Source: a virus
Taxonomy: Duplodnaviria; Heunggongvirae; Uroviricota; Caudoviricetes
Length of the DNA: 40,715 bases
Direction: 5' to 3' (one strand)
Virus record (IMG/VR): IMGVR_UViG_2851933302_000004
In this document: positions 6,618 through 34,078 of the stretch, piece after piece
Position numbering within the stretch: the stretch's first letter is position 1
Layout of the letters: every line of letters starts with the position of its first letter
Translations under genes and position numbers: made by a program
The notes under the pieces: model-generated
What the model saw: the letters and a program-made list of their open reading frames with translations, nothing else
What the model was told of the DNA's origin: nothing
The model's database searches: none

Positions 6618-6632
6618 TTACCTTTCAGGTAA
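6618..6632. promoter_or_regulatory. Operator-like palindrome TTACC-N5-GGTAA (copy 1) in the divergent region between tailspike and the LexA-box gene
   Basis: ATTACCTTTCAGGTAAT perfect inverted repeat; same motif recurs at 11 other positions. Confidence 0.5.
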
Positions 6633-6669: not shown

Positions 6670-6689
6670 TACTGTATAAATATACAGTT
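6670..6689 (+). promoter_or_regulatory. LexA (SOS) box 20 bp upstream of a small antirepressor-like gene
   Basis: TACTGTATAAATATACAGTT, CTGT-N8-ACAG with AT-rich spacer, matches about 18 of 20 positions of the E. coli LexA consensus. Confidence 0.7.
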
Positions 6690-7906: not shown

Positions 7907-8067
7907 TACTGTAGCTCTCTTCGTGTTCACGGGCACCCCCAACTACCTCTAGGGTAAACATTCTATCGAAAGTATACGCATACTGGCAAAAAAATAGGCA
8001 GGTATTTTCTGAAATGGGATCAATCAAACCACATAGGGTTGAAATAACGTGAGTTATGCATTTATTA

Positions 8068-24128: not shown

Positions 24129-24421
24129 TCCTGTTCACTGGCCTCTTTGGCCATCTTCAAATACTGTTCAGGACAATGCGCCATAACGCGCTGAAACAGT
24201 TCCAGCGCCAGATTGCGTTGCCCCTCATTAAATGCCATTGCCATAGCGTCCATCGGTGAGATAGCGGAAAACACACGGCCTTTCTCCAGCACCGACCAGA
24301 CAACGCGACGCCCCTGTTCACTGCTCATGACAAAGCGAATGTCATCAATTTCACGCTGTGCCATGTCACGTTGCTTACGGGCGTTTTCTTCTTTCAGTTG
24401 ATCGTCTTCGTAATCTGTCAT
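24125..24421 (-). CDS. Hypothetical small protein between portal and scaffold genes
   Basis: 98 aa ORF, overlapping stops and starts with neighbours. Confidence 0.4.
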   Translation of the reverse strand: MTDYEDDQLKEENARKQRDMAQREIDDIRFVMSSEQGRRVVWSVLEKGRVFSAISPMDAMAMAFNEGQRNLALELFQRVMAHCPEQYLKMAKEASEQE

Positions 24422-26097: not shown

Positions 26098-26408
26098 TTC
26101 AATGACTCCGGTTACTGACCAAGCAGCGTTTTACCGCTGGTATTAGCGGTTGATGTGTCGCCCTGAGAACCGGTAAGCAGCGTAGAACTACGACCAGCAG
26201 CAGCGCGACGGCGACGTGTTTCTTCGTCGCGGGCATCAACAACGGCGGCATCCTGCTCCTGTGGTGCTGCCTGAACTTCTGGTGTTGCAGGCACTGATGG
26301 TGAGCTACCCATGCACATATCAATGACTCCGTACGCAATTAAATTATTACCAATTTAACCACATATGATTTATTTATCGTAGAAGGTTGACATTTAACGC
26401 GTTAATTA

Positions 26409-26423
26409 TTACCTTTCAGGTAA
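26409..26423. promoter_or_regulatory. Operator-like palindrome TTACC-N5-GGTAA (copy 4) upstream of portal, with TTGACA 16 bp away
   Basis: TTACCTTTCAGGTAA identical to copy 1; AACCACATATG at 26358..26368 also shared with copy 1 region. Confidence 0.45.
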
Positions 26424-26745
26424 CCAAAGGGCTCATTCTGGTTACTAACCTGACTGGCTTGTCGTTAAATTAAACAGGTGGAGTGAGCTTTTATTTTGAG
26501 CAGTACGGCGTATGGCACATGCGCCGATAGCGGTCTGGATACGTTTAAGGGGCACCCTCCCTTGCTCGGGCAAACGAACCAGGTAGCCGGAATGTGCAAG
26601 TCGAGCGGTTTTATTCCGCGCACGGGGATTCACCATCCCGGCGATTCGGTGTGACGCCTCGGAAGAGACGAGGGTACAACGATGAGAGCATTTATGGAGC
26701 CGCGACAAAGTGTGGCGCCTTAACAGGCTAAGTGCTCTCAGCGTT

Positions 26746-26822
26746 GTGGCATTAGCTCAGTTGGACAGAGCAACCGCCTTCTAAGCGGTTGGTCGCAGGT
26801 TCGAATCCTGCATGCCACGCCA
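26746..26822 (+). tRNA. tRNA-Arg (anticodon UCU), phage-encoded
   Basis: Cloverleaf folded by hand: 7-bp acceptor stem GTGGCAT/ATGCCAC, D-arm GCTC/GAGC, anticodon stem ACCGC/GCGGT with loop CTTCTAA, T-arm GCAGG-TTCGAAT-CCTGC, encoded CCA; resembles host argU with compensatory stem changes. Confidence 0.9.
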
Positions 26823-27020
26823 GAATCACGCCTAAGGACCGTGATGCCAGAAGTTCCAGGTGCTTGGCGGTGATGGTTTCCCTTGAAGGACTATCACCGC
26901 CCTTTTTACAGCAGGACGCCATTGCGATGACTTCATGCTGTAAACCCGTACAGCCACGGAAGGCATAACTCATTGCTTCCAGTTCGCCCGGTTCGCCGGG
27001 CATTTTTTTAAGGTGAGATC

Positions 27021-27443
27021 ATGAAAACAATTGATATGTTGGCTAAGTATCTAAATGAATGGCCATTAAAATATTCTCGTATCGTTCAGGCTGAAGACTG
27101 CGTTTTTTATGGCGTTTTTGCTGGTAATGAAATGCATTACGAAGTAATTCAGAGTGAGGGACTGGCCGGGTTAACGCTTAGCGATGACCATGGAATAGGA
27201 GTTACTTGCCATGACTGGATTTCAGCGCAGAAAACTGAAATGGAAAAAGGCAATGTGTTTGATATTTCTCGCGCTGTATACGCCAAAGAAAAAAGTGATG
27301 ATGATTACATGCGCGAAAACTTATACAACATGAAGTTACAATGCCTGGCTGAAGTGCTTAGTAAAAGATCTTTACTTGATGTGGTTGGTGCTGAGCAGGA
27401 CGCCAAGGCAATCAACGCCGCATTCGATAAAATAACCTTCTAA
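27021..27443 (+). CDS. Hypothetical moron protein, 140 aa, opposite strand to late operon
   Basis: ORF with AGGTGA RBS; flanked by hairpin terminators on both sides; between terminase and portal genes. Confidence 0.5.
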   Translation: MKTIDMLAKYLNEWPLKYSRIVQAEDCVFYGVFAGNEMHYEVIQSEGLAGLTLSDDHGIGVTCHDWISAQKTEMEKGNVFDISRAVYAKEKSDDDYMRENLYNMKLQCLAEVLSKRSLLDVVGAEQDAKAINAAFDKITF

Positions 27444-27447
27444 CGCC

Positions 27448-27462
27448 GTGACATGTCACAAT
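27448..27462. repeat. Palindromic repeat CGTGACATGTCACAAT copy B, just downstream of large terminase
   Basis: Identical 16-mer also at 29663..29678; core GTGACATGTCAC is a perfect 12-bp palindrome. Confidence 0.6.
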
Positions 27463-27463
27463 C

Positions 27464-27489
27464 AGCCCGCCGATTCGCGGGCTTTTTTA
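27464..27489 (+). terminator. Rho-independent terminator after the moron gene
   Basis: AGCCCGC-CGATTC-GCGGGCT followed by TTTTTT. Confidence 0.6.
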
Positions 27490-28962
27490 TGCAAAAGGAT
27501 CATAGTCTGTGATGGCTTTGCCTTGCTGGTTCTGCTGCCCGGGAATTCGCAGACGCTTCGACACAGGGAACGCAAACGTCAGCAGTAGCGCATCGCCTTT
27601 ACCAGGAGAACGCCCAAGTCGCTCTTTGATATCTTCCTTCGGTTCGATAACGATTTTACCGTCCACGCGAACTTTGTACTCTGCCGTCGACAGGTCGTCC
27701 GCTGTTTCCTGGTCATCCAGCATGCCGCCGAGCCTCAGCCATGTCTTGCATGAGTTGAACATCTCCCCACGCTTGTTGAGCATCTGCGGGTCAGTAGACG
27801 CGCCACCGAACGGAACAAGTTGCCATGTACGACCCCAGCCGTCACCGATTGACTTCAAACCGGTTCCGTAACCGAAGTCGATGAACACCGCGTCAGCCTG
27901 ATACTGGTCTTCAAAGTCAGCGATACGCTTCGCCATAATCAGATCGTCGGTAGTCTTGTTGCCAGTCCACAGCACCTTACTGTGTAGCCCCTGCCGCAGG
28001 TATATCACCGCGTCATCAACGCCTGAATATGCCGGGTCAACACCGATTATCACCGGAGCATGTGCCACCTGCGCAGCGGTTACCACCCGTTTCATTGCCT
28101 CGTCAGTAAGACCGGTAGGGATAAACTGCAATTCAGATGCATCAGGGAATATGCCACGCACACGGATTTTAACGAAGTCGCTATCTTCCCCATAGTCATC
28201 AACCCATTTCTGCAACTGCTGTTTGTTGGTGCCTTCCACCGTCCTGCTGTCAATCTGCGCAGTTTTCCAGCGGTGTTTGTATTTGCGGAAACATTCACGG
28301 AAACGCCCGGTGTTACGTGTAGGGTTTCCGAAAGCCACCCAGATAATCTCAGTGTCTTCGTCCGTTAGCGCACCCTCGGCAACTTCCCACACCAGATCCG
28401 CAATGTTCGACGCTTCATCAAATACCACGATGATGCGTTTACGCTCGTTGTGTAGTCCGGCGAATGCCTCAGTGTTGTGCTCAGACCAGGGGATTGCGTC
28501 AGCTCGCCACCGCTTGTCGTGCCCAGGGTCATTGCTGTACATCGCGGTAGCGGTACAGGTAAACCAGTCTTTCGTGATAGCAAGGTTTGACCACTTGATA
28601 ATTTCCGGCCAGGTCTTCGTTCGTAGCTGGTTGTCGGTGTTGGCGGTCACCACGACCTTACAATCCTCGCAAGTGGACATGCCCCAGTTGATCAGCATTG
28701 AGATGAATGCGGATTTACCAATACCGTGACCAGAAGCACGTGCCAGCATAAGCGGCTGATATCGCGTCTCTGGATTCTGCAGGTGATCACGTATCTCTCG
28801 GAACGCATCGGCCTGCCACTGACGTGGACCGGTGGCATGTGCCAGTTCAGTACCCTCTTCCCCCCACGGGAACGCATAGAGGGCATAGCCAAGCGGATCG
28901 TGAGTGAACCCTGCAATATCCTCGATTAACTGCTCTTCAGGAGATAACGCTGTATCTGTCAC
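27487..28962 (-). CDS. Terminase large subunit
   Basis: 491 aa; Walker A-like ASGHGIGKS, ATPase and nuclease segments; coupled to upstream small subunit. Confidence 0.85.
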   Translation of the reverse strand: MTDTALSPEEQLIEDIAGFTHDPLGYALYAFPWGEEGTELAHATGPRQWQADAFREIRDHLQNPETRYQPLMLARASGHGIGKSAFISMLINWGMSTCEDCKVVVTANTDNQLRTKTWPEIIKWSNLAITKDWFTCTATAMYSNDPGHDKRWRADAIPWSEHNTEAFAGLHNERKRIIVVFDEASNIADLVWEVAEGALTDEDTEIIWVAFGNPTRNTGRFRECFRKYKHRWKTAQIDSRTVEGTNKQQLQKWVDDYGEDSDFVKIRVRGIFPDASELQFIPTGLTDEAMKRVVTAAQVAHAPVIIGVDPAYSGVDDAVIYLRQGLHSKVLWTGNKTTDDLIMAKRIADFEDQYQADAVFIDFGYGTGLKSIGDGWGRTWQLVPFGGASTDPQMLNKRGEMFNSCKTWLRLGGMLDDQETADDLSTAEYKVRVDGKIVIEPKEDIKERLGRSPGKGDALLLTFAFPVSKRLRIPGQQNQQGKAITDYDPFA

Positions 28963-29555
28963 TGATTGCCATCCTGGCGTTCTTTCAGTCTCTTCCTGGC
29001 TGCCGCTATGCGATCAGCAATTGTCACATTCACATTAACATCCAGGCGTTCTTTGAATGCGTTGACGTCGACGTGCTTACCAATCAGTTCGAGGTTCTTC
29101 ACCTTGTCAGGCCATTTAATTTTTTTGAGGATTGTCTCTATCGAATCCTCGTTCATGTTCATGATGGTCGATGACAGATCAAAGCCACTAAGCGTAGTGC
29201 GCCAGATTTTCGGCCACTCGCGGATTGGCTTAAGGCTCCCATCGTCGTTGAGGATGTCGATCACGTCCATCTGGTCGATCTCCACCAGGCGCATGAGAAC
29301 GTAATCAGCACTGACGCGCATTCGTTTGTTGCGCTCTTCCATCAGCTCGGCAATCCGTTTTTGAATGCGTTCATCGCGCATCATGAGACTGGCTTTAACT
29401 GCCGCTGTATTTGGGGAGAATCCTGCGTTAATCGCTGCCTGAGTCTGGTTTTCAGGCGTTTTGATGTATGACTGGCAATAAGCCTCCTGCATTGCTGTTA
29501 GTGGCTTAAATTGCGTTGATTTGCGTTTATAGGCTTTAGGTTCAGCAGGCATCAT
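28959..29555 (-). CDS. Terminase small subunit; start placed at internal ATG
   Basis: ORF 28959..29651 trimmed to ATG 29555 because a hairpin terminator lies at 29596..29624; protein resembles recalled terminase small subunit families. Confidence 0.55.
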   Translation of the reverse strand: MMPAEPKAYKRKSTQFKPLTAMQEAYCQSYIKTPENQTQAAINAGFSPNTAAVKASLMMRDERIQKRIAELMEERNKRMRVSADYVLMRLVEIDQMDVIDILNDDGSLKPIREWPKIWRTTLSGFDLSSTIMNMNEDSIETILKKIKWPDKVKNLELIGKHVDVNAFKERLDVNVNVTIADRIAAARKRLKERQDGNQ

Positions 29556-29595
29556 AACCACCGTGGTAATAGTTACCGTTGTGGTAATAGTACCA

Positions 29596-29624
29596 TGCAA
29601 AATAAAGCCGCCATAGTTGGCGGC
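29596..29624 (-). terminator. Intrinsic terminator in the leader of the late (terminase) operon
   Basis: Minus-strand RNA: GCCGCC-AACTAT-GGCGGC followed by UUUAUUUUG. Confidence 0.5.
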
Positions 29625-29662
29625 AGTATTCAAAACCATCAAATTCATCATGCATAACCCAC

Positions 29663-29678
29663 TCGTGACATGTCACAA
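29663..29678. repeat. Palindromic repeat CGTGACATGTCACAAT copy A, upstream of late operon leader
   Basis: Identical to 27447..27462; overlaps stop codon of the upstream Cys-rich gene. Confidence 0.6.
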
Positions 29679-30014
29679 TATTAATTTCGTTTCATGCCAG
29701 CCTTTGGTCACCCAGCATTGCGAGTCACCATTACACGGGCATGAATTCACAGGAACTCTCTCGCCGCACTTACCGCAACGTTTTCTGCTGATCGATTTTA
29801 TACGCCCGTGCACGCGAGCATCATCCTGGCGGATAAGTAACGCAATATACTCACCAAATTCGTAAGGCGCACGCCCGGGGCGACGCGTGGCACAGTTACG
29901 CTCCAGCATTTCAATTTCCTGAGCATCAAGCACAATCTCCAGTTTACGCACACCAGATGCAGCTTGTCTGGCTCTCTGAGCGGCTTTGCGCTCTGCTGCT
30001 GATTTAGCCATCAA
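29673..30014 (-). CDS. Cys-rich small protein with putative zinc-ribbon; candidate late-gene regulator by position
   Basis: 113 aa; C-terminal CGKCG..CPCNGDSQC cluster; immediately upstream of late promoter/terminator region. Confidence 0.45.
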   Translation of the reverse strand: MMAKSAAERKAAQRARQAASGVRKLEIVLDAQEIEMLERNCATRRPGRAPYEFGEYIALLIRQDDARVHGRIKSISRKRCGKCGERVPVNSCPCNGDSQCWVTKGWHETKLIL

Positions 30015-32480: not shown

Positions 32481-33281
32481 TTACTTGATAAATCCTGACG
32501 CCTTTCCCCGCCTGTATTCCTCCATCAGCCACTGCGCCGGTGTTATTCCCCCAAGGGTGGCGGCGTTAGGCATGCACCCGAAACTTCGCCCTGGTGGATG
32601 GTAAACGTCTCTCCCTGTGTCCGGAGGCGTACTCATGGGTTCTGGCTTTGCCTGTATGCTGATCACCGGATCGGGTATCTGCTGTCCGGAAGCCACCTTT
32701 TTCGCCCAATCATCGAGCAGCCTGCGCGCGTGTTTCTCAACCTCAATCTCGCTAAGCTGGCGCTGATACATTGCACGGCGGGTATCACATACGACCCAGT
32801 ACATAACCGGATGTCGCCACGGGAATCTTTCGGGACCACCAGGATATAAACTTTTTTCCTTGCTGTACCGGTGAAACTCCGCCATCACATCGTCAATGGT
32901 GACGCCAAGAACCATCTTGCTGTCTTTACACCACTTGATGAATTGCCCTGGCGACGGCCAGAACGGAGACTCACTGGCGCGGGCGTGGCGCATACCAGCA
33001 GAAACCTGTTCACGGGTTCGGATCCCCCCTTCGGCAAACGCAGCAATCCACTGCTGTTTTGCAGCAACTTCCTGCTCTGGCGTCTTCAGGTTGGTTACCA
33101 CTGCCGCCGGAAACAGTTGTTTCAGCTGTTTGAAAAGGGCATCAACAAGCCTCTCTGCTGACATGTTCACCACGTTGTCATTGTTGGTGTACTGATGCTC
33201 ATAACCTGACATGCGAGAAAGGGCTTCTCCGTCACGGTTTTGTATCGCGGTAAAAACGTTGTTCACAAGAAATCCTCCCAT
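32481..33281 (-). CDS. Replication protein P-like (replicative helicase loader)
   Basis: 266 aa; strong similarity to recalled lambda P (LFPAAVV..QQWIAAFAEGGIRTREQV..PFWPSPGQFIKWC). Confidence 0.8.
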   Translation of the reverse strand: MGGFLVNNVFTAIQNRDGEALSRMSGYEHQYTNNDNVVNMSAERLVDALFKQLKQLFPAAVVTNLKTPEQEVAAKQQWIAAFAEGGIRTREQVSAGMRHARASESPFWPSPGQFIKWCKDSKMVLGVTIDDVMAEFHRYSKEKSLYPGGPERFPWRHPVMYWVVCDTRRAMYQRQLSEIEVEKHARRLLDDWAKKVASGQQIPDPVISIQAKPEPMSTPPDTGRDVYHPPGRSFGCMPNAATLGGITPAQWLMEEYRRGKASGFIK

Positions 33282-34078
33282 GCTTCAGGGCTGTTCCAGT
33301 GCGGAACGTTGTTATCAGGTAATGTTGATTGCTTCTGTCTGCTAATCTGCAGCCGCCTTGCCAGCTTCTGCTCCCACTGTGCCTGATGGTATGCCTTACC
33401 CTCAGCCATCCAGTAAATTCTGAACTCTGCAAGTTCCTGTGCCGTTGGCAGACTGTCCAGGCAGATCCCCTGCAATGAGCTTTTCCGAAGAAAGTCATCT
33501 GATGGCTGCCATTGTTCATGCATGACAAATTTGCCTAATTGCCCTGGCCCACCAGGAGGAACAAAGTTATTCATCACGGCGTTGTTTGCGCCGGGGTCAT
33601 GATGCACAGAATCCCCGTTTTTTGTCCTGCTCTCCCTCTCTTGGTTAAATGACTGGTTATATGACTGGTTCTGGATCCCGTTTTTGGGATCATTCAACAT
33701 CCCGTTTTTGGGATCATTCAACATCCCGTTTTTGGGTATATTCCCGTTTTCGGTAACATTACCGTTTTCGGGTTCATTGCCCCCCTCTCGGTTGCCTTTA
33801 ATGTTCCCGTTTTTGGTTATATTAAGAGAGAAAACCCGCACTCTTTTTGTCGCTCCCTTTCTCTCCCCGGTATCTGAAATAAGCCCCATTTTCATGAGCG
33901 ATATAAGTCCGGCCTGCACGGTTTTTTTATTCAGGCAAGTGTCTTTAACGAGGCGTTCTATGCTGGGGTAGCAGAGGTTATATTCATCGGCTCTGTCAGC
34001 CATCGAGAGCAGTATGAGCTTTAATGACGAGCTACCTGGATCTGTCTCCCAGGCCCAATCTGTTGCATGTCTGCTCAT
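33263..34078 (-). CDS. Replication initiator, lambda O-like, with origin iterons inside the gene
   Basis: 271 aa; N-terminal HTH-like region, central Asn/Gly repeat (PKNGMLND x2) encoded by iterons, C-terminal domain; directly upstream of P-like gene. Confidence 0.7.
   Translation of the reverse strand: MSRHATDWAWETDPGSSSLKLILLSMADRADEYNLCYPSIERLVKDTCLNKKTVQAGLISLMKMGLISDTGERKGATKRVRVFSLNITKNGNIKGNREGGNEPENGNVTENGNIPKNGMLNDPKNGMLNDPKNGIQNQSYNQSFNQERESRTKNGDSVHHDPGANNAVMNNFVPPGGPGQLGKFVMHEQWQPSDDFLRKSSLQGICLDSLPTAQELAEFRIYWMAEGKAYHQAQWEQKLARRLQISRQKQSTLPDNNVPHWNSPEAWEDFL
33677..33824. repeat. Origin-like iteron array: two perfect 24-bp tandem repeats plus about four degenerate copies of CCCGTTTT(T/C)GG
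   Basis: CCCGTTTTTGGGATCATTCAACAT at 33677..33700 and 33701..33724, then degenerate copies through 33824. Confidence 0.7.

Follow-up and report, generated by a model that had tools for sequence, protein, structure and literature searches.

A GTGAC-NN-GTCAC palindrome at operon ends and mosaic junctions of temperate phages, a candidate protein-read boundary element

The DNA analysed here, called the window below, is a stretch of 40,715 nucleotides (nt) from the IMG/VR record IMGVR_UViG_2851933302_000004, a prophage of E. coli of the type of the temperate podophages epsilon15 and phiV10 (Uetakevirus). It carries two copies of the 16-mer CGTGACATGTCACAAT, which flank the terminase genes terS and terL and share a perfect palindromic core of 12 base pairs (bp), GTGACATGTCAC. 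The half-sites of this palindrome, GTGAC and GTCAC, separated by a strict distance of 2 bp, recur at gene junctions and operon ends in several other groups of temperate phages, and in the relatives of the window they stand at the very points where mosaic genomes diverge. Judging from these patterns, we favour with moderate confidence the explanation that a dimeric DNA-binding protein reads the sites, which would serve temperate phages as boundary elements, dividing their transcription and exchange modules.

Both copies of the 16-mer are found on the plus strand (Table 1), and the window holds no further copy even when two mismatches are allowed. By chance 0.03 copies would be expected, and none of 100 shuffled sequences contained two or more. 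A first-pass annotation, made from the letters of the window only, had already described the repeat as flanking the terminase genes, which holds with a shift of copy A by one base (from 29663-29678 to 29664-29679). Because the identity beyond the core (a C at the 5' side and AAT at the 3' side) is not kept in relatives, the meaningful unit, as read from these comparisons, is a site of 12-14 bp, Y-GTGAC-NN-GTCAC-R, and not one of 16. A possible third copy at 24358, with one mismatch, was rejected, as it lies inside a coding gene and its frequency is at chance level.

On the minus strand, the early-right operon, which ends with a gene encoding a cysteine-rich protein, is followed by copy A, a hairpin, terS, terL, a second hairpin and copy B. 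Beyond copy B lies a cargo unit on the opposite strand, comprising a transfer RNA (tRNA) gene for arginine and the open reading frame ORF140 and ending at copy B, and then come the portal gene and other structural genes. The hairpin with U-tract that the first-pass annotation had placed between copy A and terS was recovered on the minus strand by a terminator scan and by folding, and the epsilon15 and phiV10 records annotate the hairpin after the corresponding genes gp49 and p55 as a terminator. Copy B stands 25 nt past the terL stop and 4 nt from the second hairpin. Both hairpins consist of a GC-rich stem-loop with a U-tract, the first on the minus and the second on the plus strand; read in the direction of terL, the second lacks a U-tract, and copy B comes after the said 4 nt.

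Conservation was followed across the genus in 80 IMG/VR loci with close homologues of the cysteine-rich gene. Copy A is kept in 78 of the 80, as well as in epsilon15, SPN1S and one Klebsiella phage, where it is followed by an inserted gene with a LexA box, and copy B is kept in about 65-68. In epsilon15 (~80% nt identity) and SPN1S, both copies are perfect amid diverged non-coding sequence, and in phiV10 copy B is perfect despite a different terminator and a different neighbour gene, while copy A shows one core substitution. Epsilon15 contains a third perfect site, which takes in the stop codon of gp18, with which the structural operon ends, and precedes a terminator by 2 nt. All three Uetakevirus sites adjoin intrinsic hairpins at operon ends, with copy B and the third site of epsilon15 placed on the hairpin side that has no U-tract. 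Furthermore, at both copies the mosaic breaks set in no more than a few bases away from the palindrome. Clustering of the flanks gave a single upstream class and five unrelated downstream classes for site A, and for site B (68 sequences) four upstream classes, one of which takes in 62, and eight unrelated downstream classes on the ORF140 or cargo side. The search for the palindrome at module boundaries of related phages, which the first-pass annotation had proposed as a check, thus places it at the breakpoints, and the alternative offered there, that of module-exchange junctions, is supported as a description.

The same site was found in N15-like, P2-like, ZF40, Vibrio and lambdoid phages. The half-sites are invariant across these lineages and the central dinucleotide varies (AT, GT, TG, AC, CC or GC). 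The spacing is strict: five sets of loci contained 131, 65, 8, 37 and 146 sites with two central bases, versus 0, 0, 0, 0 and 1 with three. In Pectobacterium phage ZF40, TGTGACATGTCACA lies 2 nt past a gene of the cysteine-rich family, and in N15-like phages the TGA stop of the family gene is embedded in GTGACTGGTCAC, with the next ribosome-binding site 1 nt later. Yersinia P2-like phages carry an array composed of an imperfect site, a perfect site and a half-site in a 33-bp phase, adjoining a variable cargo region near the portal gene Q. Downstream of the family gene, Vibrio phages have one site accompanied by a second element at a distance of 33 bp, and they have another site 19 nt before the terS start codon; in both groups, arrays and isolated half-sites are phased at ~33 bp. 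Lambdoid contigs present the site in two forms. In the first, it links unrelated cro-like genes, as the junction GAGGTG-TGA-C-ATG-TCAC, to at least eight unrelated downstream genes, all of which begin with ATG TCA C where they are joined by the element GAGGTGTGACATGTCAC; in the second, it lies inside a Q-like gene and always encodes Val-Thr-Cys-His. Sites usually number two or three per genome, 2-5 kilobases (kb) apart, and often contain the TGA stop of a gene, which belongs to one of five unrelated gene types. No site is present in the lambda genome. Literature searches for the 12-mers or for 'matS-like' sites yielded nothing relevant, and the ZX5 and epsilon15 cryo-electron microscopy papers make no mention of these sites; apparently, this is a widespread family of phage sites that has so far gone undescribed.

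Further occurrences deserve mention in their own right. Within the Q-like antiterminator genes (loci L432-L511), the Val-Thr-Cys-His stretch covers the first cysteine of a CxxC finger, and the valine codon is always GTG and the histidine codon always CAC, with neighbouring codons varying synonymously, which weakly hints at a constraint on the DNA itself within this coding region. Another phage type has two TGTGACATGTCACA sites in coding sequences, 2.1-2.2 kb apart and each encoding Cys-Asp-Met-Ser (L233 at 2532 and 4755, L257 at 624 and 2733); one of them falls in a CII-like gene, and the pair brackets a cI-like repressor gene. L348 (Candidatus Jettenia ecosi, 200-249) and L431 (2988-3019), from bacteria unrelated to Enterobacterales, contain tandem GTGAC-NN-GTCAC sites with an 18-bp period. 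In addition, a second palindrome, CGACC-NN-GGTCG, is enriched in N15-like loci (138 copies in 50 loci; L089, L091-L139 and L189) and resembles the dispersed sopC-type centromere sites of N15. In the Klebsiella phage mentioned above, ST512-KPC3phi13.3, the LexA box following copy A is at ~5330 of locus L185.

The product of the gene that ends in copy A belongs to the gp49 (epsilon15)/p55 (phiV10)/gp46 (N15) family, which occurs in prophages of E. coli, Salmonella, Klebsiella, Yersinia and Vibrio and has distant homologues (31-65% identity) in several other phages. Its match to the phrog_536 profile is full-length (E = 1e-54 over residues 2-112), and it has no match in Pfam and none to Q in Pfam or NCBIfam. 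Four cysteines (C41, C80, C83 and C100) are invariant in the family alignment of six lineages, and the N-terminus of the protein is arginine-rich. Around the family genes, GTGAC-N2-GTCAC ranks first among the 1,024 possible palindromes of this 5-N2-5 form in each of four lineages, and loci with the site amount to 78 of 80 in epsilon15-like, 50 of 50 in N15-like, 38 of 41 in Yersinia P2-like and 3 of 3 in Vibrio phages. Together with ZF40, which also carries the site near its family gene, five of the six family-bearing lineages have it, and in Uetakevirus, N15-like phages and a Pantoea prophage the site includes the TGA stop of the family gene. When viral contigs were scanned for the 14-mer TGTGACATGTCACA, the family was present in 34 of 120 stretches; 25 of the 120 held at least two sites with the two-base centre, six of them together with a family member. 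A parallel scan of bacterial genomes from GTDB, in which most hits are single, taxonomically scattered and dominated by chance, serves as a background control only and gave the family in 3 of 120 stretches, all from Enterobacterales and each with the site at or near the gene. The link that had been proposed between the palindrome and the cysteine-rich gene is thus real in statistical terms, whatever its nature.

Invariant half-sites around a free centre, strict spacing, phased arrays and several copies conserved amid diverged flanks are together the signature of a site for a dimeric protein. Since the sites lie at operon ends, beside hairpins and on the side without a U-tract, control of polymerase passage is suggested. 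RNA is an unlikely carrier, as the palindrome alone folds at only -4.2 kcal/mol (z = -0.75), no better than shuffled sequence, on which ground a significant RNA hairpin was rejected. We infer that protein is bound at the sites and that, in its most likely mode, it would form a roadblock or insulator reinforcing one-sided terminators, by which the passage of RNA polymerase would be controlled at the boundaries. Copy A closes the early-right operon, contains the stop of the last gene and precedes the operon terminator; copy B is set against its hairpin between the convergent terS-terL operon and the opposite-strand cargo unit, and the two sites may pair with each other. The association in five lineages and the embedded stop codon make the family protein the best phage-encoded candidate, and in this phage it would most likely be the reader or the obligatory partner of the reader. 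The coincidence with breakpoints may then follow from a functional site serving as the only microhomology shared by unrelated modules.

Several observations weigh against this explanation. Copy A precedes a complete terminator, where a roadblock has no obvious purpose, and binding of any protein to the sites is itself a prediction. Copy B is absent from about a dozen E. coli relatives and degenerate in the above-mentioned Klebsiella phage. In its complete genome, Escherichia phage SaltyDalty carries two sites, representing both lambdoid forms, and no family member, and 19 of the 25 viral stretches with several sites contain no family member within the stretch; conversely, a homologue in Aeromonas phage 85AhydR10PP has no site in the locus analysed, which covers ~3 kb to one side of the gene and 5 kb to the other. 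The family protein thus cannot, on this distribution, be the universal reader, and, given the sites of SaltyDalty, another reader, be it a host or another phage protein, must exist in at least some phages. As to the fold of the protein, its AlphaFold2 model reaches a moderate predicted local distance difference test score (pLDDT 70), Foldseek and searches of the PDB by sequence and by profile returned no matches, and the only indication of a ribbon-helix-helix protein by similarity is a sub-threshold match to the LexA-regulated YbfE (E = 0.05; 14 bits versus a cutoff of 62). The pattern of secondary structure in the model is compatible with ribbon-helix-helix, but the residues of the putative beta-strand vary between lineages while the DNA half-sites do not.

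The most pertinent alternative starts from the chromosome of the host. All site-bearing phage groups infect Enterobacterales or Vibrionales, the clade that bears MatP. The Ter-macrodomain protein MatP binds matS, GTGACRNYGTCAC, a 13-bp site of the form GTGAC-RNY-GTCAC (consensus from sources including PMC3603311), whose half-sites are identical to those of the phage palindrome. A host factor, either MatP or another host protein, might read the sites and organise, loop or tether phage or prophage DNA, with the cysteine-rich protein as a modulator at most. Such a factor would account for sites in a phage without the family, such as SaltyDalty; the sites usually number two or three at distances of 2-5 kb, and MatP forms tetramers able to loop DNA in vitro (PMC7394560). 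Still, both copies in the window and the related sites have the two-base centre and not the three-base centre of matS, and they lie on phage or prophage DNA and not in the Ter macrodomain. True matS has been reported to be absent from 500 prophages of Escherichia and Salmonella and is presumed to be counter-selected there (PMC3603311), with which our loci agree, so that phages should likewise shun any other site that MatP binds efficiently. In addition, the absence of sites from lambda means that the site is not general to coliphages, and a reader of host origin only leaves unexplained why five of the six family-bearing lineages carry it. We therefore consider this explanation unlikely. A further proposal, put forward tentatively, is that temperate phages whose hosts bear MatP would have a dedicated and so far unrecognised cis-element at operon and module boundaries, in the form of a 'matS minus one base' palindrome. 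Its reader would be a new DNA-binding family with zinc (gp49/p55/gp46) or, in other phages, a functional analogue of that family, or it would be read in competition with host MatP; it would insulate or loop modules, with the setting of exchange points as a side effect.

Alternatively, the palindromes could be nothing but recombination linkers, short sequences that mediate or survive the exchange of modules with neither a trans-acting reader nor a regulatory role. The breaks within a few bases of the palindrome and the flank classes of sites A and B described above speak for such linkers, as do the lambdoid element that joins several unrelated cro-like genes to at least eight unrelated downstream genes and the P2-like site bordering a variable cargo region. 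Exchange by homology, however, should keep the whole sequence, whereas only the half-sites are invariant here and the centre varies by lineage; 12 bases are short for homologous recombination, phased arrays and isolated half-sites would be unexpected, and the same half-sites are found in phage groups without other nucleotide similarity. Pure linkers are accordingly a decidedly doubtful explanation.

The first-pass annotation had preferred to see the layout of an antitermination-controlled late operon. As worked out here, this would make copy A part of a late promoter or loading site, followed by the hairpin as a leader terminator, and the cysteine-rich protein would act as a Q-like antiterminator into terS-terL and beyond. 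Some features fit this: GTGACA in copy A agrees with the -35 consensus at five of six positions and has a weak -10 element 17-18 bp downstream in the window (GTGACA-18-CATGAT) and in epsilon15 (TAAATT), the hairpin comes within 25-45 nt, the cysteine-rich gene is where lambdoid phages have Q, the genes examined beside the terminase region included no Q homologue, and in epsilon15 sites adjoin terminators at three operon ends. The promoter-like match, however, may represent a weak promoter at most and is not kept in the alternative downstream contexts, in two of which copy A is followed not by the hairpin but by a ribosome-binding site and a gene or by a LexA-box promoter, and the putative transcript of epsilon15 would start right where the hairpin has its foot. 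The sites of N15-like and Vibrio phages stand 1-19 nt before a ribosome-binding site or start codon without promoter or terminator. The cysteine-rich protein does not match the Q family, of which a Q-type module would encode a member upstream of the late operon, and its family coexists with Q-like antiterminators in ZF40 and N15; the palindrome in turn occurs in SaltyDalty without the protein.

A further argument against antitermination comes from the sequence past the hairpin. Of 84 related loci, 81 have, directly after the hairpin with its T-tract, a conserved extended -10 element, TGnTAnTAT, overlapping a repressor operator of the form TTACC-N5-GGTAA, a family annotated in the epsilon15 GenBank record, where one annotated operator lies between hairpin and terS. 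Because of this arrangement, terS is very probably served by a repressor-controlled promoter of its own, located past the hairpin, and the latter is most simply read as the terminator of the early-right operon rather than as a late leader. The layout advanced by the first-pass annotation, including the cysteine-rich gene as candidate regulator, is for these reasons not supported, and we regard it as improbable.

Least of all do we believe in a site acting as RNA, either as a small hairpin recognised in the manner of nut or as a cassette coupling stop and start (Shine-Dalgarno-TGA-C-ATG) for translation control, since, for all the stop codons embedded for five unrelated gene types, the central ATG with which downstream genes truly begin in lambdoid contigs, the ribosome-binding site directly after the site in N15-like phages and in one Uetakevirus context and the arginine-rich N-terminus of the protein, the hairpin is marginal, the stem is invariant without compensatory changes, the N15-like and Vibrio variants have no ATG, nothing but antisense cargo sequence comes after copy B of the window in the late direction, and neither a boxA nor anything beyond sub-threshold noise from Rfam was found.

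Other known types of site were compared with the palindrome and set aside. CRP and FNR require a 6-bp spacing between their half-sites TGTGA and TCACA; both half-sites are present here, but 4 bp apart, and the conserved C and G beside the centre do not fit. There is no match to the late promoter box of the P2 Ogr type (TGT-N12-ACA), and the palindrome does not conform to the TTACC-N5-GGTAA pattern of the epsilon15-type repressor operator. A packaging site (cos or pac) had been suggested by the phiV10 record, which begins inside copy A; this record was simply opened after the p55 stop codon and that of epsilon15 after the hairpin, and copy B, the third epsilon15 site and the sites of N15-like, P2-like and lambdoid phages are not beside terS. 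Homology of the cysteine-rich family to MatP was likewise dismissed, as hhalign was negative (probability 0.1%).

The features of the region are collected in Table 1. It is 96% identical to phage PAS61, and the leader segment tested with copy A (29560-29720) is identical (100%) to a prophage of E. coli IHE3034; the copy-A leader region was found in 651 of 5,426 complete E. coli genomes. We take ATGATG at 29555/29552 as the true terS start, rather than the longer open reading frame that reaches 29651. The slot between terL and the portal gene (26387-27489) is, as far as comparison can tell, a cargo hotspot, because relatives hold at least seven unrelated genes there.

Table 1. Coordinates of the palindrome copies and neighbouring features in the window
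Feature	Position	Strand	Remarks
Copy A	29664-29679	+	Core 29665-29676; includes the TGA stop (29675-29673, minus strand) of the cysteine-rich gene; upstream of terS
Copy B	27447-27462	+	Core 27448-27459; between convergent terL (-) and ORF140 (+)
Cysteine-rich protein, 112 amino acids	29673-30011	-	gp49/p55/gp46 family, phrog_536, E = 1e-54
Intrinsic terminator, GCCGCCAACTATGGCGGC then TTTATTTTG	29598-29624	-	Terminator scan; folds stably; hairpin part 29624-29607
Putative terS promoter/operator	29573-29595	-	Extended -10 TGGTACTAT at 29595-29587, overlapping operator TTACCACAACGGTAA at 29587-29573
Terminase small subunit, terS	28959-29555	-	Pfam Terminase_2, E = 7.5e-30; start as in the epsilon15 and phiV10 annotations
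Terminase large subunit, terL	27487-28962	-	PHROG matches; 99% identity to Uetakevirus TerL
Hairpin AGCCCGCCGATTCGCGGGCT then TTTTTT	27464-27489	+	Stem-loop 27464-27483; canonical terminator for the plus-strand unit
Cargo unit	26387-27443	+	Ends at copy B
Promoter-like hexamer TTGACA of the cargo unit	26387-26392		Consensus; described as overlapped by repressor operator 26409-26423
tRNA-Arg(tct)	26746-26822		In cargo unit
ORF140	27021-27443	+	phrog_4846; in cargo unit

The TTACC-N5-GGTAA operators number 13 in the window and stand at operon starts across the genome (6618, 8068, 9114, 26409, 29573, 32367, 32429, 34375, 34712, 34760, 35472 and 35534 are such positions), and further operator-like palindromes with one mismatch lie at 7943 and 29555. 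They match the repressor operators of the epsilon15 record and imply that the repressor would control the late operons (terS and portal) and the cargo units directly. About 40 nt from the operator at 6618, there is a near-consensus LexA box (TACTGTATAAATATACAGT, ~6670-6688), in keeping with the antirepressor under LexA control that SPC32H-type phages are described to have. At 33676-33823, within a replication-initiator-like gene (33263-34078), lie six direct repeats of iteron type (TCCCGTTTTTGGG and so on, 18-24 bp spacing), which are probably the phage origin. Finally, a sub-threshold Rfam match to the Hfq-binding small RNA rseX (31.7 bits versus a threshold of 50) covers 29600-29684 on the minus strand, exactly the segment bounded by the palindrome and the terminator; AU-rich sequence and the terminator probably drive the match, which would agree with a short transcript that begins at copy A.

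Should the sites prove to be protein-bound boundary elements, they would provide a handle on the way in which early, late and cargo transcription are kept apart in phages that have neither Q nor N, and would bear on why mosaic junctions recur at the same precise points in unrelated phages. The identity of the half-sites with those of matS, along with the strict avoidance of true matS, would suggest an unexplored interplay between phage DNA and the organisation of the host chromosome, and a protein family of E. coli, Salmonella, Klebsiella, Yersinia and Vibrio prophages would gain a testable function. In practical terms, the site marks hotspots for the insertion of tRNA and accessory genes.

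Among known systems, the arrangement is reminiscent of lambda, where Q with PR' and tR', or N with nut, likewise present a small regulator gene upstream of the late genes, then a site and then a terminator, and where nutL and nutR are an identical short sequence occurring twice in one orientation. Here, however, no homology to Q or N was found, there is neither boxA nor a covarying boxB hairpin, the stem being invariant across lineages, and a separate repressor-controlled promoter is predicted downstream of the hairpin; the phage site is palindromic DNA with invariant half-sites, and the family occurs beside Q-like proteins elsewhere. With the boundary sequences of the modular theory of lambdoid phages, the site shares its position exactly at junctions of unrelated modules, but those linkers lack its defined palindrome with half-site logic and phased arrays, and it is common to podo-, myo- and siphophages that have no other similarity. 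The epsilon15/SPC32H-type repressor operators are dispersed palindromes of the same genome, one of them ~80 bp from copy A, which differ in sequence and stand with their 13 copies at promoters, whereas GTGAC sites occupy operon ends and gene junctions. The sopC-like centromere palindromes of N15, also short, are likewise dispersed over the genome of a temperate phage, and a single protein reads them; in contrast, they serve plasmid partition by SopB, and most phages with the GTGAC site integrate into the chromosome. In the comparison with matS and MatP, both sites are palindromic with the same GTGAC and GTCAC half-sites, belong to the same host clade and are dispersed singly at a few per replicon. 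They are set apart by length (12 bp with a 2-bp spacing versus 13 bp with 3 bp), by the location of the phage sites on genomes from which true matS is absent, and by a cysteine-rich family that profile comparison does not relate to MatP. MatP is a ribbon-helix-helix protein, and the predicted secondary structure of the phage protein would be compatible with that fold.

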